A stretch of DNA of 64,000 nucleotides from Candidatus Zixiibacteriota bacterium. GTDB taxonomy: Bacteria; Zixibacteria; MSB-5A5; GN15; PGXB01. Below the pieces are notes generated by a model. It saw nothing but the letters and a program-made list of their open reading frames with translations. It had not been told where the DNA came from and made no database searches. Shown here piece after piece: positions 5,689 to 22,497 of this stretch. Positions within the stretch are counted from its first letter, which is position 1, and the number at the start of each line of letters is the position of its first letter. The DNA lies in assembly GCA_026397505.1 (NCBI GenBank), contig JAPLUR010000047.1, positions 11,040-75,039 of the forward strand, given 5' to 3'. The translations under genes and the position numbers were made by a program.

Positions 5689-7578
5689 ATGAAAGTGCCA
5701 AATAAAGCCATGGCGCTGGTGCTCTGCCTGCTCTTTCTTTCCGGCAGTGTATGGGCACAGACTAGCGCCAATTATATATTGCAGGTTGGCGGGCCGGTGG
5801 GTGGTGGCGGCAGTGCCGGCAGCAGCGGGTATAATGTAACCGGCGATGTCCCATTAAGTGCCTCGGGCGGCTCCGGTTCGAGTAATTATACGATTGTGGG
5901 AGGAATTCTCGGCGCCGCATACCGTGGCGCGGCCTCCTTTTCGGCCATGTACACAGGCAGTGATGAGGAAACCGTTAACATTGCCGCTCGGACTTTGAAA
6001 GTAGCTTACAGCGGTGGTACCGGTGCAGTCGCGGGCGTATTTTATTATCGTCTGGGCGGTGATGAGTCTTATTCCAGCGCCGGTATGACAGCAGGTACCG
6101 GGGACACCATGCTTTACATCCTGCCGGCCAACTCTCTTACTATCCGCGGTCTGGAGTACTATTTCGAACTGACGCGCAATTCTATTATGGTGTCGCTCCG
6201 ACATCCAATAGCCCCATATGTCTTTATCACCCGGTTTGATAATACCGTGGGAAAAAGGCCGACCGCTATGCCGAACGCCCAATATCGAATTATCGGGGTT
6301 CCGATCGGCTTTTCAACGCGGCAGTCGGTTGATGATGTTTTCCTCGATGATCTCGGCGCCGCCGACAAGAAACAATGGCGGCTGGCCAACTATGACAATA
6401 CGACCGGGACATATCTGGAGTATCCCGATGCATCTATTGTCACTCCCACCCGGGGATACTGGCTGATTGCCCGGGGCGGTAAGAAATACGGCGCCGCCGG
6501 ATTCTCTATGCGGCCGAATACGTCTCTTCCTATCCCCGGTGGAATCGGCTGCTACGAAGTGGCGGTAGACTCCGGCTGGAACCTTGTGGCCAATCCTTTT
6601 CCATTCAATATCAGTTGGGCAGATGTACGGTTTAAGGATAATGATGTTCTGCAGGATGGCCATCCCGCATCAGTTCTTGATGATTTCGCATACTGGTATT
6701 CGGGAACGGCTTATAGTAATGTCGCCACAATTCCGGCATGGGATGGGTTTTTCGTGAAAATCAACAAACGCAACATCAAAATTCTATTCCCATATCGCGT
6801 AAGCGGTATTACTCTGATTGACAAACTATTTGCGGGCATGCCATCGGCCGGGGGAACCGCCGGGGCATGGGATATCCAGTTGCAGTTGGCTGTCGGGGAT
6901 CGTCTGGATGACTGCAATTTTGCCGGAGTAAGAGGTGATGCCTCAACGGGGCCAGACGTATATGATTATTCCGAACCGCCGCCTGCGCCTGAAGGTCCGA
7001 TGCTTGCCTTCCGCCTCCCGGACGGCGATAAAGGTTTGCACCGTGCTGATTATCGCGCCCCGTTCAGTGACGGCGCGACCTGGGATATTACCATGCTGCC
7101 GATGCCGGGGCGTGTCCTGACCCCCGGCGGACTAGGACAGATTCCGGAAGGTATGGAGGCATGGCTGGTTTTGGACAACGGAGCCAAATATAAATTGACC
7201 GAGGGTGACGCGATAGGCATCCCCGATGGAGTAAAGTCGGGCCGGTTGCTGGTTGGAACGGAGAAATATCTCGACGAAGAGGACTCTATTTTGATTCCTT
7301 ATAATTATGCCCTTTTCCAGAATTTCCCCAATCCGTTCAACCCGTCGACAAGTATCAGATTCGCTCTGCCGAAAAGCGGTAAGGTCAGACTGGAGGTTTT
7401 TAATCTCCTTGGCCAGAAAGTGAAAACTTTGATTGACGGCGAACTCGAGGCCGGGTATCACAGCGTTTTGTGGGATGGTAACGATAGTCACGGCAAAGCG
7501 GCAGCCACCGGCGTATATTTCTATAAGATGACCGCCGGCGCTTTTTCCGAGAATCGCAAGATGCTGCTTCTGAAATAG
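5689..7578 (+). CDS. secreted protein with T9SS (Por) C-terminal sorting domain
   Basis: Signal peptide MKVPNKAMALVLCLLFLSGSVWAQ. C-terminus FQNFPNPFNPSTSIRFALPKSGKVRLEVFNLLGQKV...GVYFYKMTAGAFSENRKMLLLK matches the T9SS type-A CTD consensus. Confidence 0.85.
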   Translation: MKVPNKAMALVLCLLFLSGSVWAQTSANYILQVGGPVGGGGSAGSSGYNVTGDVPLSASGGSGSSNYTIVGGILGAAYRGAASFSAMYTGSDEETVNIAARTLKVAYSGGTGAVAGVFYYRLGGDESYSSAGMTAGTGDTMLYILPANSLTIRGLEYYFELTRNSIMVSLRHPIAPYVFITRFDNTVGKRPTAMPNAQYRIIGVPIGFSTRQSVDDVFLDDLGAADKKQWRLANYDNTTGTYLEYPDASIVTPTRGYWLIARGGKKYGAAGFSMRPNTSLPIPGGIGCYEVAVDSGWNLVANPFPFNISWADVRFKDNDVLQDGHPASVLDDFAYWYSGTAYSNVATIPAWDGFFVKINKRNIKILFPYRVSGITLIDKLFAGMPSAGGTAGAWDIQLQLAVGDRLDDCNFAGVRGDASTGPDVYDYSEPPPAPEGPMLAFRLPDGDKGLHRADYRAPFSDGATWDITMLPMPGRVLTPGGLGQIPEGMEAWLVLDNGAKYKLTEGDAIGIPDGVKSGRLLVGTEKYLDEEDSILIPYNYALFQNFPNPFNPSTSIRFALPKSGKVRLEVFNLLGQKVKTLIDGELEAGYHSVLWDGNDSHGKAAATGVYFYKMTAGAFSENRKMLLLK

Positions 7579-10157: not shown

Positions 10158-11341
10158 ATGGCCATTCCCAGGGAATCAACCGGTAAATCACTCAGTTGGC
10201 GTTTTATCTTAAGGGCACTGAAGTACCGCAATTACCGTCTCTTTTTCGGCGGCCAGGGGATTTCTCTCATAGGAACATGGATGCAGCGGCTGGCGGTCAG
10301 TTGGCTGATTTACCGCCTCACCGGCTCTCCGTTCCTTCTGGGGATCGCCGGTTTTGCCAGCCAGATACCGACTTTCATTCTGGCCCCGGTGGCCGGAGTG
10401 GTCGCCGATAGATACAACCGGATGCGGATTCTCATCCTGACCCAGACATTGGCGATGTTTCAGGCTCTGATATTGGCGGTCCTGGTTCTTACCAATGCCG
10501 TTGAGGTTTGGCATATTATTGCCTTAAGCCTTGCCCTGGGGGTCATCAATGCCTTTGATATGCCCGCGCGGCAGTCACTGGTGGTGGAGATGATTGAAAA
10601 TCGTGAGGATCTGGGGAACGCCATTGCTCTGAATTCTTCTATGTTCAACGGCGCCCGCCTGATCGGGCCGTCACTGGGCGGGATACTCATTGCGACGGTT
10701 GGCGAAGGGATTTGTTTTCTAATCAATGGACTCAGTTTTATTGCCGTGATCATTGCTCTTCTCTACATGAAGATTAACGCCCATCCTGCAGAGAATAAAG
10801 GGACACGTTTTTTGCAAGGGCTTAAGGAGGGGTTCGTATACGCGTTCGGCTTCCTGCCGATTCGTTCCATACTACTGCTCCTGTCCCTGGTCAGTTTGAT
10901 GGGGATGCAGTATGCGGTGCTGATGCCGATTTTCGCCAAAGATATTCTTCACGGCGGCCCCAACACGCTGGGATGCTGCCGATCGGCTTTGGCCTGATGG
11001 TGCAGATGGCGGCAAGCAATACGGTGTTGCAGACCATTGTCGATGATGACAAGCGCGGCCGTTTGATGAGCATTTACGCCATGGCCTTCATGGGCGTCAC
11101 GCCGCTGGGTAGCCTTCTGGCGGGAAGCATGGCCAGCCATTTCGGCGCCCCGGCCACCCTGATTGTGGGAGGGGCGGTCTGTATTTTGGGGGCGGCGGCT
11201 TTTGCCCGAGAACTGCCGCGTATCAGGAAACAGATTCGCCCGATTTACCAGAGAAAAGGGATTCTCCCTCTGACAATACCAATCAATGAATCGATTGGGG
11301 GGATGCCGGCCCAGCCGGGGCCGGGGGAAAGACCGATATAA
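10158..11341 (+). pseudogene. MFS transporter interrupted by a -1 frameshift near 10970 (two ORFs, 10158..10997 and 10973..11341)
   Basis: The N-terminal ORF ends ...ILHGGPNTLGCCRSALA*. The next frame continues MLPIGFGLMVQMAASNTV..., the expected MFS C-terminal half. The join LG|MLPIGFG needs one extra base in 'ctggga'. Confidence 0.7.
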
Positions 11342-12139: not shown

Positions 12140-12895
12140 TTATCTTAACAATTGATCAGCGGCGCAACCAAGCATAGAGCCGAAGGCACTGCCGCCGCAA
12201 GCTAAGCCCAAACAACCCAAATATCCGGCGGTAGAGGCAATACAAATAATGCTGGATGCACCGCAACCTGTAATGGCACGTGAAAGACTGCACTTTAGCC
12301 ATGATTTCCAACGCCACTTTGCGGCCATAGGATAATTAGGGTATAAGTTCATTGAATAGGTGGGCATATAACCATATAGCCAGAGTTGATAATCACCCAT
12401 GTCCTGCATTTCAAAGCCATCTCTTGCGACGGAAGATAGTAATTGCGACTGGATACACCACCCAATGTCCGGATTGCTGACCTGCGTGACATATGCAGCG
12501 ATAGTGCTGTCGCCCGGCATCTCCATAGCCAAGATCAATATTTCCACCGATATCAATGAATCTCTGTCCGGATATTCTGCTTCACCTTCGACGATGAAAC
12601 TGTACTGATATGCCAGACGGAATCCCTGCTCCTCAAAGAATTTGATCTGAGTATTTGCAGGTTCACTTTGTGCCCCCTGCATAAGCCGGGTCGCACCACC
12701 GTTGTCCCATGTCACCATGGTGCCTCCGCCTCCCGTGCCATCGGCAAACCAGTCCTGACGATTATGTTTCAGCCAATCACTCTGATTCATTTTACGCGTG
12801 CTTTCCATGCCACTCTTGCCACAACTCAGGATCAATGCCACTGCCATTAAGGCAATCATCGATCCAATAAACAACGATCTTCGCCTGCGCATCAT
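12140..12895 (-). CDS. lipoprotein with Cys/Gly-rich hydrophobic C-terminal tail, hypothetical
   Basis: AAGGAGG RBS before ATGATG. Lipobox-like ALILSCG. C-terminus ITGCGASSIICIASTAGYLGCLGLACGGSAFGSMLGCAADQLLR. Confidence 0.6.
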   Translation of the reverse strand: MMRRRRSLFIGSMIALMAVALILSCGKSGMESTRKMNQSDWLKHNRQDWFADGTGGGGTMVTWDNGGATRLMQGAQSEPANTQIKFFEEQGFRLAYQYSFIVEGEAEYPDRDSLISVEILILAMEMPGDSTIAAYVTQVSNPDIGWCIQSQLLSSVARDGFEMQDMGDYQLWLYGYMPTYSMNLYPNYPMAAKWRWKSWLKCSLSRAITGCGASSIICIASTAGYLGCLGLACGGSAFGSMLGCAADQLLR

Positions 12896-13347
12896 GATTT
12901 CCTCCTTCATAATAAATAATGATTAAATCTCTTGGCAATATCTAATTGCCATATTTCATTTTTATATTTTCCCATTCTCTCCTTTCCTATGGCGGGTCAA
13001 GGCAATTGATCGGACAGATGCCCCATCTCTCGATTTGAACACCGCCCGCCTTTCGGCGGGCGGCTTCCCTGTCAACCCGAATGGAGGTGAGTCCTCTTAC
13101 CCTGCTCAGGCCGGAGGCACAGAAATGGTTTTGTTCTTTCAGATGCCGAGAGCAGGCTGGAGCCTTGGCCTTAAGCGCTGAACAGCCCGCCCCGGCTATC
13201 CTCAATGGTCCGCCAAATTGGGCTCATGACAGACCAGCAATGCTCATATCAAAAGCGATGCCAACCGAAAGCAGGCACGTCGATATCGCGATAATATGTT
13301 GAACAATAAAGAATTAGGTTGGTATGTTTGAAGAGAGGGCTATTCCT

Positions 13348-13410
13348 GAGCCAGGATGCCTGCGTAGTCTACGCAGGCATCCTGGCTCGCGCTGCGCAGA
13401 CTACGCATCC
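13348..13410. repeat. palindromic repeat element, copy A (GAGCCAGGATGCCTGCGTAGTCTACGCAGGCATCCTGGCTC + TGCGCAGACTACGCATC)
   Basis: Perfect 19-bp-arm inverted repeat around GTC, followed by a second TGCG.AG.CTACGCA palindrome. Confidence 0.85.
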
Positions 13411-13938: not shown

Positions 13939-14190
13939 TCAGTCAATATTACACCAATAAATTGCGCCTAATAATGCACCAGACGCCCAAAATCCAATAG
14001 CTAATAGATACAATTTATAGCCCTCTGGGGAAAACCAATCCTTCATCTTCCAAACGGGCCTGATATATTTCATACGAATACTTCCGAGCGCAAACGGCGG
14101 ACAAGATTCAGTACGACGTCTTAAGGCAGGCACTATAGCAATTATACCTGCAATTTCCAATAGCAGTGATAACACAAGCAATAGAATCAT
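13939..14190 (-). CDS. small 2-TM membrane protein, paralog of 14359..14637
   Basis: Shares the motif IRPVWKMKDWFSPEGYKLY with the neighbour (VQPWKVNEWFTPTGVKLY). AGGAAA lies before the ATG. Confidence 0.55.
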   Translation of the reverse strand: MILLLVLSLLLEIAGIIAIVPALRRRTESCPPFALGSIRMKYIRPVWKMKDWFSPEGYKLYLLAIGFWASGALLGAIYWCNID

Positions 14191-14358: not shown

Positions 14359-14637
14359 TTATTTAAAAGGGAAGTCAAATCCGCCGCTGATGATCAGAAG
14401 CACGACTCCTATCATAATACAGGTGTAGCTTGTAAAGTAGAGTTTAACACCTGTCGGCGTAAACCATTCATTTACTTTCCATGGCTGAACCCAATGAATA
14501 GGGTTATATGACGGCATTGGTGGCGCATTGGCCGCGCGATGTTTCCGGGCCAGAAATCCGAGCACTAATCCCATCACCAGAAATACTGCACACAACAATA
14601 ACAGAAAAGTATTCATACCATATCCTCCACTACTCAT
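14359..14637 (-). CDS. small 2-TM membrane protein, paralog of 13939..14190
   Basis: Same architecture as the neighbour: TM, basic patch, W-x-x-E/D-WF-x-P-x-G-x-KLY, TM. Confidence 0.55.
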   Translation of the reverse strand: MSSGGYGMNTFLLLLCAVFLVMGLVLGFLARKHRAANAPPMPSYNPIHWVQPWKVNEWFTPTGVKLYFTSYTCIMIGVVLLIISGGFDFPFK

Positions 14638-14676: not shown

Positions 14677-15636
14677 TTACAATATTTTCACTAAAACACA
14701 TACGACCACACCTATTGAACATCCGACACATACTATGTTGGAAAAACCGCCAAATGGGCATTTGAGCACTATACACTCGTAAACCATGTGACAAATGAGT
14801 TCCCATGGGATTTCTGTTTCCGGGTACATGGTTTCGCCATGAGGCATTTCAAGCCTGTGTTCGGTATAAATGCGGGAAGCCAATTCCTTGCTCTTAATCA
14901 AATCAATTACCAGTTGGGCATCAGAGTTATTGTACAGTGAATTTGATGTGTCGTTAAATTGGTTAAATTCCTCAATGGTCCCGATAATTTCAAGGTCTTG
15001 AGCAGCATATTTGGCCAGGTTGCGCTCATTGTAGCGCTCATATGAATATACCTGGTCCCTCAATGATGCAATTCTGCTCACATCATCAGTGGGAAATGCA
15101 AATGCCCTGCGCATGCCGTTTAATGTGTAAGTTTCAGTGAAGAGATGCGGCTCTCTTTTCTGTTCGATAACCAGTTCATCAGATTCGGTTTTCTCCGTCA
15201 CCCAGAAATGCGTGCTGTCGCTGCGATCAAATTCGCACCCTAAGGCCCATTTAAGATGCTCGCGCTCGTCAATCAAGGTGGCACGCCAGCATCGATAGGT
15301 CGTAGGAGTGGCATAAGCCTCAATAATCAATTTGCGATTTTGAGGAGACTGGGTGTTCTCATATGCCATTATATTAAAAGTGGCTTTATTAGCTGCAGTG
15401 TCAATATTATAGGACAATATATCCACTTTTCCGACCGACAAACTGACGGTGAGCAACGGCGGTTTCTCGCAATCAATTTGTTGCTGCTCTCCGATCGCTT
15501 TCATTTGCGTGGCCGAGGTGGCGTTTTTACCACCATCTTTTTCCGTGATCGGCGTTTCATTACAGCCGGTAAGCAATTGCATCATAATGCAAATACTCAA
15601 TGCGGCGATACAAACCATAGTGGATTTGAGCTTCAT
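14677..15636 (-). CDS. lipoprotein with Cys-rich hydrophobic C-terminal tail, hypothetical
   Basis: GGAGG RBS 7 nt before the ATG at 15636. Lipobox LLTGC. C-terminus ICHMVYECIVLKCPFGGFSNIVCVGCSIGVVVCVLVKIL. Confidence 0.6.
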   Translation of the reverse strand: MKLKSTMVCIAALSICIMMQLLTGCNETPITEKDGGKNATSATQMKAIGEQQQIDCEKPPLLTVSLSVGKVDILSYNIDTAANKATFNIMAYENTQSPQNRKLIIEAYATPTTYRCWRATLIDEREHLKWALGCEFDRSDSTHFWVTEKTESDELVIEQKREPHLFTETYTLNGMRRAFAFPTDDVSRIASLRDQVYSYERYNERNLAKYAAQDLEIIGTIEEFNQFNDTSNSLYNNSDAQLVIDLIKSKELASRIYTEHRLEMPHGETMYPETEIPWELICHMVYECIVLKCPFGGFSNIVCVGCSIGVVVCVLVKIL

Positions 15637-15794
15637 GGCAATTCCTCCTTTGTTTAGAGCCATTTCCCGAATTATGCCTAAGCCAAATCCGTACCAAGTT
15701 TGGAAGACTATGCCGCCACATTCATAACTCCAATATTGTCATGATGTTAATTATACAAGTCATAGCATTGACTTTAGAACAGCTAAGTTGCACT

Positions 15795-15843
15795 TGCGTA
15801 GTCTACGCAGGCATCCTGGCTCACAGTGCGTAGTCTACGCATC
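15795..15843. repeat. palindromic repeat element, copy B (TGCGTAGTCTACGCAGGCATCCTGGCTC-N6-TGCGTAGTCTACGCATC), direct repeat of copy A
   Basis: Same 28-mer plus second palindrome, in the same orientation as copy A, about 2.4 kb away. Overlaps the 3' end of the sigma-54 regulator gene. Confidence 0.85.
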
Positions 15844-17985
15844 GGAATCATTGCCGATATCGTATTTTCGCATTTGATAGCGCACCCCACCCTCAGTAAG
15901 GCCCAGCCGGCGGGCCGCCTCGCGCTGATTCCAATCCGATTCCTGAAGTGTCTTAAGCAGTTTCTCCCTGTCAGTCTGATTCCCTTCAGACAAAAACTCA
16001 AGCATCCTGCTTATATCCCCACTGCAGGTCAGGCAGAGACGCCGAACCTCTACCCGCAACTCCCGCACATTCCCCGACCAGGGGCGGGTCTGAAGAATGC
16101 TACAGATTTCCTTAAAAGCATCATGATTCCCATCAGACGTAGGATCAAAGCCGCCTTCGGCAAGAAAATGAGAGATTAGAGCCGGGATGTCGTCGCTGCG
16201 CTCCGACAGCGGCGGAAGTGAAATCGGTATCTCATTCAGACGGTGATAGAGATCGGCCCGAAACCGGCCGCTGCGAATTGCCTCCTCCAGGTTTTGATTG
16301 GTCGCTGCGATCACCCGAATATTCAGTTTGGTCGGCTGCGTGCTCCCCAGCCGACGAACCTCTCTGGTCTCCAAAACCTCCAGAAGTTTCGCCTGAAACT
16401 GCGGCGTCGTATCGGCAATCTCATTCAAATAAAAAGTGCCGCCTTCGGCCGTTTCAAACAAACCCGGCTTATCCTGTGGAGCCCCAGTGAATGCCCCTTT
16501 CCGATACCCAAACAACTCCGATTCAACCATCCCCTCCGGTATCGCCGCCGCATTCACCGAAACGAATTTGCCCGCCCGCCCCGAACAAAAGTGGATATAT
16601 TTGGCCAACTGGTCTTTCCCCGTACCGGTCGGCCCGGTCAACAAAACTGTCATCTCTGAGGCGGCAATATTCTCGGCCAACGCCCGGATTTTCCGAGTCG
16701 TGGGATGTTCCGCCACAAAAACAGGACACGCCCCGCCGGAGGGACGAGGAGCGGGGCGTGCGGGTGTTACCGTCAACACGGCATTAACTTTCTCTATGTA
16801 CGGCCGGATATCTTCCGACTCAAAATATTCTTTCGCCAGATAAAGGAGGGCCGCCTTCTCGCCATTGCCATACAATCCGGAGACAGCCGCCAGGTAGCGG
16901 GTGGCCGCCAGTTCATACCGGCTGCTTATTTGAGCGAAAAGGTCAATTGCTTTTTTGAACCATTCTTTGGCTTTATCTTTTTCCCCTCTTTGAAGGGCAG
17001 TCTGAGCGAACACCCGCCAACAAGCGGCAATTTCGGCCCGCTCGTTGATCTTCTCGGCGACAATTAATGCTTCCTCGGCATATTTCTGGGCCAAATCGTA
17101 CCTCTTCAGGCCGAGATAAGCATCAGCCAGAAGCCGTTTGGTTTGGGAGATAAGGGCCGACTCGGGGGCGATTTTAAGCGAGAGTTCCAGCCCTGATAGA
17201 AGCGCCTTCTCCGCCTCATTGAATTCCCCCGCAAGGATATGTATCCAGCCGAGGAATTCATAATACTGCGCCTTTTCACGCTTTAGATCGCCGGACAATT
17301 GTGTCGTCTCAGCTATGAGCTGCTTTGCTGGCCCAATATCACCAACGTGGGCCATGACTAGGGCACAGCGCAATTTATGACGATAGGTGAAATCTGCTGT
17401 AGGATTGTGCATATGTGCTGCTGTGCAATTGAATAGTGAAAGTGCGCTTTGCAGTTGGCCCGAAATAAAATATACCATAGCAAGATTATGGGTCAGACTT
17501 TTAACTTTTTCCTGGTCATTTGACTGCTGATATAGGTCAATGCATTGCTTGAGAAGATTGATAGAAGCGTCAATTTCGCCGGATAAACCTGCAATAAATG
17601 CTAAACGATTTAGTGAGGCTGCAGCGCCTCCGACATCATCGCATCGTTTATAGCTTCCGTACGATTCGAGAAAACATTCGCGCGCTTCGGCATGATTTCC
17701 CATCGCGACGTAGACCCTGCCGAGCAGGAATTTGGCTTTGGCGTATCTATCGGTCCGAATACTATACCTGTAATGCCGGATGGCGCTATTGATGATGGGG
17801 AGAAGATCATAATCGCCAAGTTGAAGACCTATCTCGGTCTTCAAAATGCAATAATGGGCATAGTCGTCAGGCAACATTGACTTAGCATTGAACTTGGTCA
17901 ATTCTAAAGAAGCTGCTCCGAAATTCCTGTCTTTCAGGAATTGCTCAATTGCGGAGAATAGAGATATGTATGTCTCTTGTTTCAT
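15835..17985 (-). CDS. sigma-54-dependent transcriptional activator (bacterial enhancer-binding protein) with N-terminal TPR repeats and C-terminal Fis-type HTH; no receiver domain
   Basis: AAA+ sigma54-interaction domain (GPTGTGKDQLAKYIH, GAFTGA, GGTFYLNEIAD, RFRADLYHRLN). HTH REAARRLGLTEGGVRYQMRKY. TPR-like N-terminal half. Confidence 0.85.
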   Translation of the reverse strand: MKQETYISLFSAIEQFLKDRNFGAASLELTKFNAKSMLPDDYAHYCILKTEIGLQLGDYDLLPIINSAIRHYRYSIRTDRYAKAKFLLGRVYVAMGNHAEARECFLESYGSYKRCDDVGGAAASLNRLAFIAGLSGEIDASINLLKQCIDLYQQSNDQEKVKSLTHNLAMVYFISGQLQSALSLFNCTAAHMHNPTADFTYRHKLRCALVMAHVGDIGPAKQLIAETTQLSGDLKREKAQYYEFLGWIHILAGEFNEAEKALLSGLELSLKIAPESALISQTKRLLADAYLGLKRYDLAQKYAEEALIVAEKINERAEIAACWRVFAQTALQRGEKDKAKEWFKKAIDLFAQISSRYELAATRYLAAVSGLYGNGEKAALLYLAKEYFESEDIRPYIEKVNAVLTVTPARPAPRPSGGACPVFVAEHPTTRKIRALAENIAASEMTVLLTGPTGTGKDQLAKYIHFCSGRAGKFVSVNAAAIPEGMVESELFGYRKGAFTGAPQDKPGLFETAEGGTFYLNEIADTTPQFQAKLLEVLETREVRRLGSTQPTKLNIRVIAATNQNLEEAIRSGRFRADLYHRLNEIPISLPPLSERSDDIPALISHFLAEGGFDPTSDGNHDAFKEICSILQTRPWSGNVRELRVEVRRLCLTCSGDISRMLEFLSEGNQTDREKLLKTLQESDWNQREAARRLGLTEGGVRYQMRKYDIGNDSDA

Positions 17986-18286
17986 TTCCCGGCGTAATTA
18001 CCTTCCAGTAGGAAGGAAAAATAAAGGTTTGATTCGTTATGGCCCTGATAATGTTGATGATTGTATGGCCTTCGTCGCCATTATTTCCGTTATAAATATT
18101 GGGCGCTATTCTGCAAGGAGAAGTGGAGTGAGACAGCAAAACATCTTCCCACGGATAATCCCACAAAATCGGATTGTTAATGGGCTGCACATTTCTTATT
18201 CTATTGCCGCCATCAGCTAGAACAGGTGGGGAAAACAAAATCCATATCACCGCCCCCAGCAGCAAAGCAAACATTATCTTTTTCAT
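17945..18286 (-). CDS. small secreted protein (113 aa), paralog of 18332..18712
   Basis: Signal peptide MKKIMFALLLGAVIWILFSPPVLADGGNRIRNV is about 90% identical to the neighbour's N-terminus. The 5' leader is also conserved. Confidence 0.6.
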   Translation of the reverse strand: MKKIMFALLLGAVIWILFSPPVLADGGNRIRNVQPINNPILWDYPWEDVLLSHSTSPCRIAPNIYNGNNGDEGHTIINIIRAITNQTFIFPSYWKVITPGNETRDIHISILRN

Positions 18287-18331
18287 AACTTTCGCCTCTT
18301 CCTAAAGGTTTATTAAGGCCACTAAACCTCA

Positions 18332-18712
18332 TCACCGGCGGCCCAAATCGCCGGCATTTATATCTGTGTCGAAACTCCCGACCAAGGGGTCGGGACAGGC
18401 GCAGGGGTTTCGACCTATCTTAATCAACGAAAAATCAAATCTTATAGAGAAATATATATAAAGCATATTGCCTATAATGTTTCTCGGGGGAGTAGTCACG
18501 CGGTCCTGCGTAGCAATCCTTATGTTTGACAACGCGATGTCAGATAGTGATGGTGACGCACCATCCAATTCCTGCCACGGGTGTTCTTCAAGAGTAGGAT
18601 CATGGATTGATATCACATTTCTTATTCTATTACCCCCATCAGCAAGAATGGGTGGGGAAAACAACATCCATATCACAGTCCCCAGCAGTAATGCAAACAT
18701 TATCTTTTTCAT
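18332..18712 (-). CDS. small secreted protein, diverged paralog of 17945..18286
   Basis: Start set at MKKIMFALLLGTVIWMLFSPPILADGGNRIRNV, with a GAGGTG RBS. The ORF track's longer start (18748) lacks an RBS. Confidence 0.6.
   Translation of the reverse strand: MKKIMFALLLGTVIWMLFSPPILADGGNRIRNVISIHDPTLEEHPWQELDGASPSLSDIALSNIRIATQDRVTTPPRNIIGNMLYIYFSIRFDFSLIKIGRNPCACPDPLVGSFDTDINAGDLGRR
18366..18428. repeat. GTCGAAAC...GTTTCGACCTA element, copy 2 (in the 5' leader of small secreted protein gene A)
   Basis: tGTCGAAACtcccgaccaaggggtcgggacaggcgcaggGGTTTCGACCTAt with an inner hairpin TCCCGACC/GGTCGGGA. Confidence 0.7.
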
Positions 18713-18790
18713 AATCATCACCTCATTCAAAAGGTTTATCTTGGCCACTAAACCTCATCACCGGCAATCCAATCCACCGGCATTTATTCT

Positions 18791-18828
18791 CTGTCGAAAC
18801 CGCCTACCGCCAGCGGGGTTCGACCTAT
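18791..18828. repeat. GTCGAAAC...GGTTCGACCTA element, copy 3 (in the 5' leader of small secreted protein gene B)
   Basis: tGTCGAAACCgcctaccgccagcGGGGTTCGACCTAtt. Confidence 0.7.
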
Positions 18829-19034
18829 TGCGCTTCAACATCGCGGGAGGGCCGGGCCAAAAATGCTGAGTCTGAAAACCAGTGTCGCTGATTGCAGGGT
18901 AAGGTTGTTGCCACCGGCATTCTCCCATTCGGATTTCTTAGCCTATCTCTATAACTAAGATGATTTTTATTAAGAATTTGTCAAGCAAAAAATCACCTTA
19001 AGTGCCTGTCCAGCTTAAAATATAGCCTTTACCC

Positions 19035-21147: not shown

Positions 21148-22497
21148 TTGAGCGACGTGCAACAGGAAGAGATTGGCTTGCAACCCGACCGGCCACCGGC
21201 CGAGATTCCGACCAAACTTCTAAACAAGAATTTTCTGATTCTCTGGCAGGGGCAATTTATCAGCCAGATGGGTAATCAGGTTCATGCGGTGGCAATGATG
21301 TTTTGGATCAAGCATGCCACCGGCTCGGCCACATTGATGGGAGCATTGCTGATGCTTGCCAGCCTTCCGGGCGTGCTGTTGGGGCCGCTGGGGGGTACTT
21401 TCGCCGACCGGCATTCACGACGTAAGATAATTATTTTCAGCGACCTCTTTGCCGGAGTGGCGGTTCTCTCGCTGGCCATACTGCTGTTTTACCTCCCCAC
21501 CAGAACCGAATTGATCATTATCTGGCTGAGTTCCGTATCCGTCATTTTGAGCGTAATAACGGCAGCTTTTGGCCCGGCTATCGGAGCCTCCATTCCCGAT
21601 CTCGTTCCAAGAGATAAGATCGCCGCGGCCAATTCCTGGCGGCAGTCATCATATCAACTCTCATCATTCTTCGGTCAGGGGGCAGGAGGCATTCTATTCA
21701 GAGTCCTCGGAGCGCCGGTGCTGTTTCTTTTCGATGGTTTAAGTTATCTGCTCTCGGCGACCTGCTGTCTTTTCGTAAATATTCCGCAGACATTCCCCGA
21801 AAAGGCGACCGGTTTCAGGGAAGTCATCCGGGCCTTCAAGAGCGACACTATCGAGGGAATGCACTATGTCTGGAAACGGAAAGGGATGCGCGATCTGTTC
21901 TTTGCGGCGACTTTGATAAATTTCTTCTTTTCTCCGTTCGCCACTCTTCTCCCCTTTTATGTCGAGGATAACCTCAAAGCGACTTCGGACTGGTTCGGTT
22001 ACATGCTGGCCACACTCGGTGTCGGCGCTCTTCTCGGATACTTTTTCGCCGGCTCGGTAAAACCCTCGGGACGGGGCCGAACTATAATATTTGTCAGTTG
22101 CCTGATTGGCATTGCCGCTGCCTTTATCGCTTTCGGAATAAACACCGGCACCTATACGGCGCTGTTGTTGATGTTCATATTCGGGTTTCTGAGCGGTACG
22201 GTTAATATTTATGTGGCCACTATCCTTCAATCAACGACGCCAAGTGAAATCCGCGGCCGGGTTTTTGGCCTGCTCGGTGCTATTTCGGGCGGTCTAATGC
22301 CGATTGGCATGGGTCTGGCCGGGGTGATAGCCGACCTGACAGGCAAGAATATCCCACTCATATTTTCCATTTGCGGTATCATATCGCTGCTTGTAACGAT
22401 TTTCCTTGCTACTCTAAGGGATTTTCGTGAGTTTGTGGCCTTCGAGCCCGGCAAGGACGACCAATCCGGAAGTACAATAGCACCTGATTCCGTATGA
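21148..22497 (+). CDS. MFS transporter
   Basis: 12-TM-like hydrophobic profile with MFS loop motifs. TTG start 7 nt after the upstream stop. Confidence 0.7.
   Translation: MSDVQQEEIGLQPDRPPAEIPTKLLNKNFLILWQGQFISQMGNQVHAVAMMFWIKHATGSATLMGALLMLASLPGVLLGPLGGTFADRHSRRKIIIFSDLFAGVAVLSLAILLFYLPTRTELIIIWLSSVSVILSVITAAFGPAIGASIPDLVPRDKIAAANSWRQSSYQLSSFFGQGAGGILFRVLGAPVLFLFDGLSYLLSATCCLFVNIPQTFPEKATGFREVIRAFKSDTIEGMHYVWKRKGMRDLFFAATLINFFFSPFATLLPFYVEDNLKATSDWFGYMLATLGVGALLGYFFAGSVKPSGRGRTIIFVSCLIGIAAAFIAFGINTGTYTALLLMFIFGFLSGTVNIYVATILQSTTPSEIRGRVFGLLGAISGGLMPIGMGLAGVIADLTGKNIPLIFSICGIISLLVTIFLATLRDFREFVAFEPGKDDQSGSTIAPDSV

Follow-up and report, generated by a model that had tools for sequence, protein, structure and literature searches.

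The window analysed here is a 64-kb stretch of DNA (64,000 nucleotides, nt) from a Candidatus Zixiibacteriota bacterium, positions 11,040 to 75,039 of contig JAPLUR010000047.1. On its minus strand lie two small genes with a common beginning, here called pB and pA, followed by the gene of a transcriptional regulator, RegA, and by the genes presumed to be its targets; all coordinates below are positions in the window. pB (18332..18712) is an open reading frame (ORF) of 126 amino acids (aa). In pA (17945..18286, 113 aa), the signal peptide is followed by the acidic PW motif DYPWED and a variable region, and the tail and the start of the RegA gene share 41 nt. A 218-nt direct repeat (18144–18361 versus 18570–18787, 78% identical, spaced by 426 nt) spans the leader, the ribosome-binding site (RBS) and 49 codons of each small gene, and beyond it pA and pB diverge.

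The small genes pA and pB

Identity between pA and pB extends to 35 of the 49 N-terminal residues (BLASTP E 4e-25), and past residue 49 no similarity can be detected in any frame; frameshifted homology between the diverged parts was ruled out by tblastn, which found none. A preliminary description of the locus, made from its letters, had reported two small ORFs that share an export part and then diverge strongly, and this is borne out. The lengths of 113–126 aa that it gave hold for the ORFs as well, with the qualification that the last 29 residues of pB (codons 98–126) are read-through into the duplicated leader of pA and not conserved coding sequence. The B-type small protein corresponds to codons 1–97 of pB and measures 109 aa in relatives with a single copy. 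Both signal peptides are recognizable by sequence features (MKK, about 15 hydrophobic residues, then PP(I/V)LA and DGG on the two sides of the predicted cleavage site), and the conserved part ends in an acidic W motif, DYPWED in pA and EHPWQE in pB. Structure prediction, one of the checks proposed at the outset, gave a divided answer for pA: AlphaFold2 (AF2) was confident of the signal-peptide helix (residues 2–18) and of nothing else, with a predicted local distance difference test (pLDDT) score of 47 and no confident fold for the mature region, which is predicted to be unstructured.

pA and pB are genuine genes under purifying selection. In codon comparisons, the ratio of nonsynonymous to synonymous divergence (dN/dS) of the pB type is 0.13 against locus L003 of a sister strain and 0.19 against locus L001, and separates into 0.07–0.09 for the conserved N-terminal part and 0.33–0.37 for the variable part. 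Strong Shine–Dalgarno (SD) sites precede both genes. Synonymous divergence (dS) between pA and pB over the shared 49 codons amounts to 0.85, which is the level found between species (0.82 for the window versus L001), so the two are not recent tandem duplicates. The initial view of simple tandem paralogs that arose by local duplication does not survive this comparison, nor the finding that the sister strain has only pB, together with a different regulator sensor.

pB is annotated as NCBI locus tag NT002_03815 in a candidate division Zixibacteria metagenome-assembled genome (MAG). Word-indexed searches of 5.8 billion clustered proteins with pA and with a five-sequence profile returned only five relatives, all from its own clade, and a full hidden Markov model (HMM) scan, run over 1.8 billion representatives, contributed just two further, distant members, P0127 and P0128 (E ~5e-6), which have the same signal peptide and the motif RIKN..DP.L..HPW.D. 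Four other assemblies and two distant representatives contain homologs. Neither protein matched Pfam or NCBIfam, a profile search of the PDB gave nothing meaningful, and a scan of metagenome contigs with the small-protein profile yielded 0 relatives. pA has no matching NCBI-sourced protein entry (a Logan-derived 109-aa version was the only match), and the RegA entry at NCBI has 688 aa, a length at odds with the conserved N-termini of homologs, which favour the 716-aa start that overlaps pA. Judging from these comparisons, the deposited annotation probably misses both pA and the overlap between pA and RegA. We also note a weak tblastn similarity (E 0.62) of pA residues 6–47 (NNPILWDYPWED region) to window positions 14476–14607 (NPIHWVQPWKVNEW), in a 92-aa membrane protein of the target cassette, which is probably due to chance.

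The regulator and its sensor

The RegA gene (15835..17985) encodes 716 aa, with about 10 tetratricopeptide repeat (TPR) hairpins in aa 1–415, a sigma-54 AAA+ domain containing GAFTGA and a Fis-type helix-turn-helix (HTH). Its Pfam matches are PF00158 (E 3.8e-60), TPR_12 (E 3.8e-27), TPR_MalT, AAA_lid_14 and HTH_8; among NCBIfam models no equivalog was matched at its cut-off. The AF2 model of residues 1–420 has a pLDDT of 93 and consists of 21 helices forming about 10 helical hairpins.

A sequence search of the PDB found LGN/Pins TPR domains, IFIT and similar proteins, and no RRNPP receptors among the matches. LGN/Pins TPR domains bind extended peptides. In a Foldseek search with the model, LGN/Pins were best by E-value, and the best superposition was with MalT domain III (1hz4; template modelling (TM) score 0.66/0.74, root-mean-square deviation 4.7); a pheromone-bound phage Rap protein appeared at rank 47 (TM 0.54/0.60). 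The model and these matches indicate that the RegA sensor is a TPR superhelix of the ligand-sensing type, for which homology to RRNPP receptors was not detected.

A hypervariable block across the small gene and the sensor

The preliminary description placed the divergence in the secreted protein. It is not limited to that protein, and runs unbroken into the gene of the TPR/sigma-54 activator downstream, over its first ~232 codons. In blastn comparisons, the DNA of L001 matches the window at 18765–18424 and then at 17288–16145, with nothing alignable between. The variable block is contiguous, with its ends near codon 50 of the small gene and codon 232 of the regulator. Its part within RegA (17289..17985, aa 1–232), contiguous with the variable part of pA, is the hypervariable N-terminal TPR sensor block, and the blastn breakpoint against L001 lies at 17288.

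The contrast between this block and the rest of the regulator is pronounced. RegA and the L001 regulator are 30% identical over aa 1–244, 94% over aa 245–415 and 83% over the AAA+ domain. The corresponding values are 60%, 94% and 83% for RegA and P0007, the regulator of locus L046, and 30%, 91% and 90% for the L001 regulator and P0007. Between the most distant members of the regulator family, identity in the first segment (aa 1–244) is still about 30%, so the N-terminal sensors of near-identical regulators differ as much as the family allows. The proportion of synonymous differences in the variable block is 0.74–0.89, that is, saturated, compared with a dS of 0.49–0.75 in the rest of the regulator gene. 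This indicates that the block is much older than its flanks and not merely less constrained.

Co-variation was assessed in 29 loci, with each locus divided into the N- and C-terminal parts of the small protein (SN and SC), aa 1–240 of the regulator (RN) and the remainder of the regulator (RC). Among pairs of loci with RC identities of at least 80% (80–93%), SN stays at 63–93%. SC and RN in such pairs are either both conserved (SC/RN 85/73% for L014–L019 and 84/92% for L033–L044) or both saturated (SC 16–32% with RN 28–50%), at equal identity of the flanks; the window and L046 form an intermediate pair (SC 26%, RN 60%). This bimodal pattern is seen in three independent clades. The partial Mantel correlation between SC and RN given RC is 0.38, a value reached in none of 2000 permutations (0/2000), whereas the converse correlation between SC and RC given RN is 0.03, and SN tracks RC instead (0.44).

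The types are also concordant between the two genes: small protein and sensor are both A-like in L046 and both of type B in L001 and L003, and L002 represents a third type. Paralogous modules within one MAG differ in type (L029/L031, L008/L009). Because the types are discrete rather than clock-like, and because paralogs in one MAG belong to different types, we argue that the block defines specificity types.

The module in other Zixibacteria

At least 173 proteins belong to the regulator family, nearly all of them labelled Zixibacteria, and the N-terminal TPRs are the least conserved part of the regulator family-wide (entropy 2.32 versus 1.38). A genome scan with the conserved TPR block found 41 loci, several MAGs having 2–3 copies. 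The upstream region is included in 35 loci; a regular expression recognizes a signal-peptide ORF immediately before the regulator, in the same orientation, in 33 of them, and inspection by eye in the other two, compared with 8 of 86 other ORFs taken as control. A small ORF with the acidic W motif [DE][DE]x[PG]W[DEG] is found at 32 of the 35 loci, compared with 2 of the 86 control ORFs. These small ORFs have about 68–135 codons and usually overlap the regulator start by 4–71 nt, and the motif lies about 20–30 residues past the predicted cleavage site.

Between clades the sequence of the small protein becomes nearly unrecognizable while the pairing and the overlap are kept. The combination of a conserved export part with a divergent remainder recurs independently in L008/L009, L028/L029/L031, L016/L020/L030 and L023/L024. 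Some small proteins are short (68–90 aa; L006, L036, L042, L043) and end just past the W motif (..DPDFPWDNPDR or ..GDENPWGDPGH before the stop), without a variable part.

Origin of the two-gene arrangement

Relatives have one small gene each, followed by an overlapping regulator. In the sister strain, L003 is 91.7% identical to window positions 18981–18429, which hold upstream DNA, the leader and codons 1–97 of pB, and then continues into a B-type tail (..FDFSLTANSLDFRNAYQR) that overlaps a B-type regulator (MHINVKQ..); L001 is also arranged in the B-type manner. In the window, a 1.1-kb segment with leader A, pA and the A-type sensor has taken the place of this tail and of the B-type sensor. 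The segment starts exactly at a palindrome (ATAGGTCGAAAC, ~18420) and rejoins conserved regulator sequence near 17288. The pair of pA and RegA also exists elsewhere, in L004 (99.3% nucleotide identity) and, as a diverged A-like pair, in L046. pB is thus the orphan of a replaced cassette, left behind when its cognate regulator sensor was lost. We infer that the replacement came about either by recombination that used the conserved body of the regulator gene as its anchor and joined illegitimately on the left, or by deletion between two formerly tandem modules.

Leaders and palindromes

Each small gene is preceded by a leader in which the preliminary description saw a palindrome, a CCGG-stem hairpin, a GGTTTA..TAAACC hairpin and the RBS, and all of these elements are present in both copies. 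Leader A (18287..18420) has a palindrome resembling repetitive extragenic palindromic (REP) elements at 18368–18414, the CCGG-stem hairpin (hairpin 2) at 18334–18355, the GGTTTA..TAAACC hairpin (hairpin 3) at 18307–18328 and the RBS. Leader B (18713..18835) has a degenerate form of the palindrome at 18793–18824, a weakened hairpin 2 at 18760–18781, hairpin 3 at 18733–18754 and the RBS GAGGTGAT. The 22-nt block CCGGTGATGAGGTTTAGTGGCC occurs exactly twice in the window, compared with 0 occurrences expected.

The palindrome itself is not specific to the leaders. Copy A has it in perfect form (GTCGAAAC..GTTTCGAC) and copy B is one base short (GTCGAAC), and it recurs at unrelated intergenic positions in six other loci while being absent from the L001 leader. 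Its general form, tagGTCGAAAC and GTTTCGACcta around a variable C/G-rich centre, is dispersed between genes in several Zixibacteria MAGs (L014:2578–2600, L019:110–132, L024:3543–3565 and 6357–6379, L025:605–646, L027:1057–1088, L031:498–520). As judged from this distribution, the GTCGAAAC palindrome is a dispersed REP-like element that marks the left junction of the inserted segment. The same palindrome was considered as a binding site of the regulator and rejected, given that the spacing of its arms differs between the copies, that L001 lacks it and that it occurs at unrelated intergenic positions.

In each of the five sequences available (5/5), both hairpin 2 and hairpin 3 can pair; three one-sided changes in hairpin 2 each lead to a G-U pair, so that pairing is kept, and hairpin 3 with its flanks, about 28 nt (GATGAGGTTTAGTGGCC...ATAAACCTTT), is invariant in the five sequences despite a dS of 0.6–0.85 in the neighbouring coding sequence. 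Part of what had been described as a structured leader is thus under constraint. As to structure, these five sequences contain 0 compensatory pairs in hairpins 2 and 3, the leaders have no match in Rfam at the gathering threshold nor at E<=1, and folding is clearly better than for shuffled sequences in leader A only (z −2.15, compared with −0.43 for B and −0.23 for L001). A metagenome scan with the invariant leader 17-mer gave 18 matches, all by chance, and no additional leaders for the analysis of covariation; a scan of the locus for sigma-70 promoters and terminators did no better than shuffles. The leader region is clearly constrained; an RNA hairpin, a switch based on anti-SD pairing and an operator bound by a protein are its possible modes of action.

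In 13 of 37 leaders, a CCTCAC-like box lies 30–60 nt upstream of the start of the small gene and is complementary to the unusual SD sequence GTGAGG (leaders with such a box are found in L005, L007, L008, L009, L010, L016, L020, L028–L031, L033, L038 and L044). This complementarity suggests sequestration of the SD site. As a family-wide feature, pairing of this kind was considered and set aside, the enrichment being weak: exact complements to the SD of at least 6 nt are found in 22% of leaders and 11% of shuffles.

The output side of the module

Downstream of the regulator stop codon, 19 of 32 loci have a sigma-54 site that reaches the 95th percentile of shuffled sequences, and the offsets cluster at about 135–260 nt. 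Several of these sites are perfect, for example TGGCACAACGGTTGCA in L009. Between the regulator stop and the promoter, many loci contain two palindromes of the form CGTA-N3-5-TACG placed 31–32 nt apart. On the strength of these motifs, from which the whole output architecture is drawn, the TGCGTA..TACGCA palindrome pairs are candidate enhancers. In the best sigma-54-type sites, the −12 element often reads TTG[TA]W and not TTGCW (e.g. TGGCACGAAGGTTGTA); examples are found at 13248–13263 in the window and downstream of the regulators in L006, L010, L013, L026, L028, L035 and L036. Several loci have an untranslated stretch of 200–400 nt between the promoter and the next gene.

In the window, two such pairs are arranged one after the other on the minus strand. 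The putative RegA enhancer, or upstream activating sequence, at 15795..15841 consists of two TGCGTAGACTACGCA palindromes (15827–15841 and 15795–15809, 32 nt apart). It is followed by the candidate sigma-54 promoter P1 at 15681..15696 (TGGTACGGATTTGGCT, GG-N10-GC), 45 nt upstream of an ATG at 15636, and by the first target gene (14677..15663), which encodes a 328-aa lipoprotein with an LTGC lipobox and a Cys-rich hydrophobic C-terminal tail. The second palindrome pair (13361..13407) has an imperfect member at 13393–13407 and a perfect one at 13361–13375, again 32 nt apart. About 100 nt downstream of it lies the sigma-54-like promoter P2 (13248..13263, TGGCATCGCTTTTGAT), from which about 340 nt of untranslated DNA, with a GC-rich hairpin near 13030–13062, lead to the next gene. 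The second target gene (12140..12910) encodes a 256-aa lipoprotein with a Cys/Gly-rich C-terminal tail.

The presumed regulon, all on the minus strand, thus comprises two lipoproteins and two paralogous small membrane proteins (14677–15663, 14359–14637, 13939–14190 and 12140–12910), none of which has a Pfam or NCBIfam match. Compared with L046, the first target cassette of the window is non-homologous (L046 has a different lipoprotein and membrane protein), whereas the second lipoprotein is 80% identical. The C-terminal tails of both target lipoproteins are rich in Cys and Gly and hydrophobic (e.g. ..CGASSIICIASTAGYLGCLGLACGGSAFGSMLGCAA..), a similar tail is found in L041, and such tails could be a new sorting signal or bacteriocin-like domains. 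No rpoN gene turned up in the Pfam scan of the window's large ORFs, which was not a search aimed at rpoN. Elsewhere in the window, the overlapping plus-strand ORFs at 10158–10997 and 10973–11341 (279 and 122 aa) look like two halves of one major facilitator superfamily (MFS) transporter and resemble the MFS_3-type gene at 21148–22497; a frameshift or an assembly error could account for the split.

Discussion

A module of three parts is conserved in Zixibacteria, and pA and pB are best read as two old specificity types of its first gene. The first part is a pre-protein of 70–135 aa in which a predicted Sec signal peptide and the acidic motif [DE][DE]x[PG]W[DEG] precede a variable C-terminal region. 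The second is the overlapping gene for a cytoplasmic regulator whose N-terminal sensor, a TPR superhelix, is fused to a sigma-54 AAA+ activator and an HTH, and the third a pair of CGTA..TACG palindromes with a putative sigma-54 promoter just past the regulator, which would drive genes for a lipoprotein and small membrane proteins. Judged by synteny, pA is the cognate partner of RegA, and the overlap of the two genes suggests translational coupling.

These results lead us to propose that the variable TPR sensor could have as its cognate ligand the exported protein's variable part or a peptide derived from it, and that binding of this ligand would turn the AAA+ activator on or off. If so, every type would form a signalling channel of its own, comparable to the RRNPP systems and the agr/com pherotypes. 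The chances that the small protein and the TPR sensor interact directly as cognate partners, by whichever route, seem to us about even. The more specific proposal, that the Sec-exported protein or peptide returns from outside the cell as the type-specific ligand of the TPR–sigma-54 regulator, in pherotype-like cassettes exchanged between strains and paralogs, is put forward tentatively, as a possible form of that interaction.

Several observations weigh against the ligand–sensor reading. The evidence on binding, export, processing and re-import is comparative throughout, and an external ligand would have two membranes to cross before it met the sensor in the cytoplasm; Pfam scans showed no importer gene among the ORFs of the window. 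Upstream of the small genes there is no enrichment of sigma-54 promoters that would suggest autoinduction (mean score 10.7 versus 10.5 in shuffled sequences). The small proteins are longer than typical pheromone precursors, pA lacks a confident AF2 fold, and the acidic W motif may be the functional core in some lineages, given that the small proteins of L006, L036 and L043 have no variable part at all. Within a type, the variable part is under purifying and not positive selection. Finally, the co-varying segments are physically adjacent, and linkage with recombination alone could give the correlation between them.

The last point is the core of a different account, in which the two genes are co-transcribed and their products do not interact: the small protein, perhaps one of the periplasm or the cell surface, would just be the one that the operon encodes first, the TPR domain would sense something else, and the block would be a hotspot of recombination or low constraint that happens to span both genes. 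The two variable segments being contiguous DNA, linkage would explain their correlation; the N-terminal TPRs are the least conserved across the family as it is, and the non-homologous first target cassette in the window and L046 shows the whole locus to be plastic. It is harder to see in this account why pairing and overlap should be kept in about 35 of 35 loci over deep divergence, why the types are discrete and not clock-like at equal divergence of the flanks, and why paralogous modules in one MAG (L029/L031, L008/L009) are of different type. On this evidence we consider the absence of any interaction unlikely.

It is also conceivable that the interaction takes place entirely inside the cell. 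The precursor, before export, would bind the cognate TPR sensor and hold or activate the regulator, and Sec export would remove it, so that the module would report secretion status or couple expression to export. Partner switches of a comparable kind are FlgM/sigma-28 and the anti-activator pairs PspA/PspF and FleN/FleQ. Such a mechanism needs no re-import across two membranes. The gene overlap, through the translational coupling that it suggests, would provide stoichiometric co-production, the avoidance of cross-talk between paralogous modules would explain their co-diversification, and a mature region that is predicted to be unstructured would fit a TPR-groove ligand. On the other hand, the canonical cleavable signal peptides suggest efficient export, and we know of no precedent for a Sec substrate that serves as the anti-activator of a bacterial enhancer-binding protein (bEBP). 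An intracellular switch is unlikely in our estimation.

The leader could, alternatively, be the key to the locus, with hairpin 3 and the anti-SD stretch forming a cis-acting RNA switch or a protein operator for the small gene, and the duplication copying a control element. The invariance of about 28 nt next to coding sequence with a synonymous dS of 0.6–0.85 speaks in this direction. The three one-sided changes in hairpin 2 retain G-U pairing, which works at the RNA level only, an ACCUU next to hairpin 3 can pair with the SD, and other clades have CCTCAC..GTGAGG complements in 13 of 37 leaders. This is offset by the lack of compensatory changes, the lack of any Rfam match even at E<=1, folding z-scores that are insignificant for B and L001 and a weak anti-SD enrichment (0.22 versus 0.11). 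Moreover, a leader switch would be an addition to the module and not an alternative explanation of the two proteins, and in the role of principal explanation we regard it, too, as unlikely.

The preliminary description favoured toxins, bacteriocins, effectors or an effector/immunity family, that is, fast-diversifying secreted proteins. A signal peptide followed by a hypervariable mature region would be expected of these, and the downstream lipoproteins with Cys/Gly-rich tails and small membrane proteins loosely resemble bacteriocin/immunity sets. The neighbourhood and the evolution of pA and pB leave this view unsupported for the small proteins. No immunity-like gene is adjacent; what invariably lies next to the small gene is the gene of a transcription factor, and the sensor of that factor co-varies with the small protein. 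A block that is contiguous across the variable part of pA and the regulator sensor points to a ligand/sensor cassette and not to a toxin/immunity pair. In addition, pA and pB have no Pfam, NCBIfam or PDB match, the dN/dS of 0.33–0.37 within a type gives no sign of an arms race, and the small gene lies upstream of the sigma-54 circuit and not under its control. A toxin function is very unlikely for pA and pB, and would suit the lipoprotein cassettes downstream better than these small proteins.

Finally, the idea of spurious ORFs in a degenerate duplicated region could draw on the leader read-through in the pB tail, the missing NCBI-sourced match of pA and its low AF2 confidence, and it is already refuted by the conservation data: alignment with relatives shows the ORFs to be conserved elsewhere (four other assemblies, two distant representatives and an equivalent ORF at about 35 related loci), with dN/dS of 0.07–0.37 and strong SD sites on both genes.

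Comparison with known systems

If pA and its relatives are ligands of the TPR sensors, the module would be RRNPP-like in its logic, and also agr/com-like, while belonging to neither family as judged by its components. The sensing of exported peptides by TPR receptors in the cytoplasm counts as a hallmark of the Gram-positive Bacillota and of Bacillota phages (PMC10075063, PMC9765709), and the signature of RRNPP systems is a propeptide of 10–100 aa, a Sec/signal peptidase I (SPI) signal, a receptor of 250–500 aa, TPRs and adjacent genes (PMC10075063). The Zixibacteria module shares the Sec/SPI signal (by sequence features), the TPRs of the receptor and the adjacency of propeptide and receptor. 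It departs from the signature in two of the five points, clearly in receptor size (716 aa, with a TPR part of about 415 aa) and marginally in propeptide size (113 and 126 aa).

As in the RRNPP(A) systems of Bacillota and phages (Rap-Phr, NprR-NprX, PlcR-PapR, AimR-AimP), the gene of a small Sec-exported pre-protein stands beside that of a cytoplasmic TPR receptor, with an overlap as in rap-phr, the receptor would control the transcription of adjacent genes, and several specificity types (alleles or paralogs) and orphan signal genes exist. The output differs, being a sigma-54 AAA+ activator rather than an N-terminal HTH or a phosphatase, in a protein of 716 aa compared with 250–500 aa, and the RegA TPR domain has no detectable homology to RRNPP receptors. 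The Zixibacteria pre-protein is also larger (100–135 aa) and encoded upstream of the receptor, the host is a diderm from a candidate phylum, and processing and import are hypothetical here.

In the agrBDCA (Staphylococcus) and comQXPA (Bacillus) pherotype cassettes, a contiguous hypervariable block spans the signal precursor and the sensor part of the receptor. The block in Zixibacteria has the same layout as read from the alignments: it covers the putative signal precursor and the receptor sensor, its flanks are conserved, and its types are discrete, old and, as in agr/com, deeply diverged and shared across close relatives. The agr/com receptors are membrane histidine kinases that sense outside the cell, unlike the soluble TPR domain fused to an activator found here.

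The remainder of RegA conforms to the bEBPs of the NtrC/NifA/PspF class, both in its AAA+ domain with GAFTGA and C-terminal Fis-type HTH and in the tandem palindromic enhancers about 100–130 nt upstream of a −24/−12 promoter. It differs from them in its regulatory domain, a TPR superhelix of about 415 aa, and in the −12 element, often TTG[TA] as opposed to TTGC. The bEBP literature that we retrieved makes no mention of TPR sensors, and no paper on sigma-54 regulation in Zixibacteria was found. A TPR superhelix that serves as the sensor of a ligand or antagonist and controls an ATPase-driven activator is known from MalT and the STAND-type TPR (SUPR) proteins, in keeping with the TPR_MalT match. 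In MalT, however, the sensor is C-terminal to a STAND NOD ATPase, the HTH is of the LuxR type, transcription depends on sigma-70, and there is no known small exported partner.

Conclusions

On the most conservative reading, the locus is a clean natural case of cassette replacement that created an orphan gene, within a module that is conserved and multi-copy in an uncultivated diderm phylum and whose types are discrete and exchangeable. If the relation between ligand and sensor holds, peptide-type signalling would reach a new lineage and act through a new transcriptional output. If, more specifically, the ligand is the exported protein or peptide, these modules would make up an undescribed class of cell–cell or self signalling, in which RRNPP-like peptide/TPR logic would appear for the first time outside Bacillota and for the first time wired to sigma-54, and the strain represented by the window would make two signals, pA and the orphan pB, and sense one of them. 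The signal gene, the regulator, the enhancer and the promoter are defined to the base, and the proposal is thus directly testable in a heterologous host. It would assign a role to a regulator family of 170 members and to some 35 or more small proteins now called "hypothetical", with a predicted regulon of lipoproteins with Cys-rich tails behind defined enhancers and promoters.

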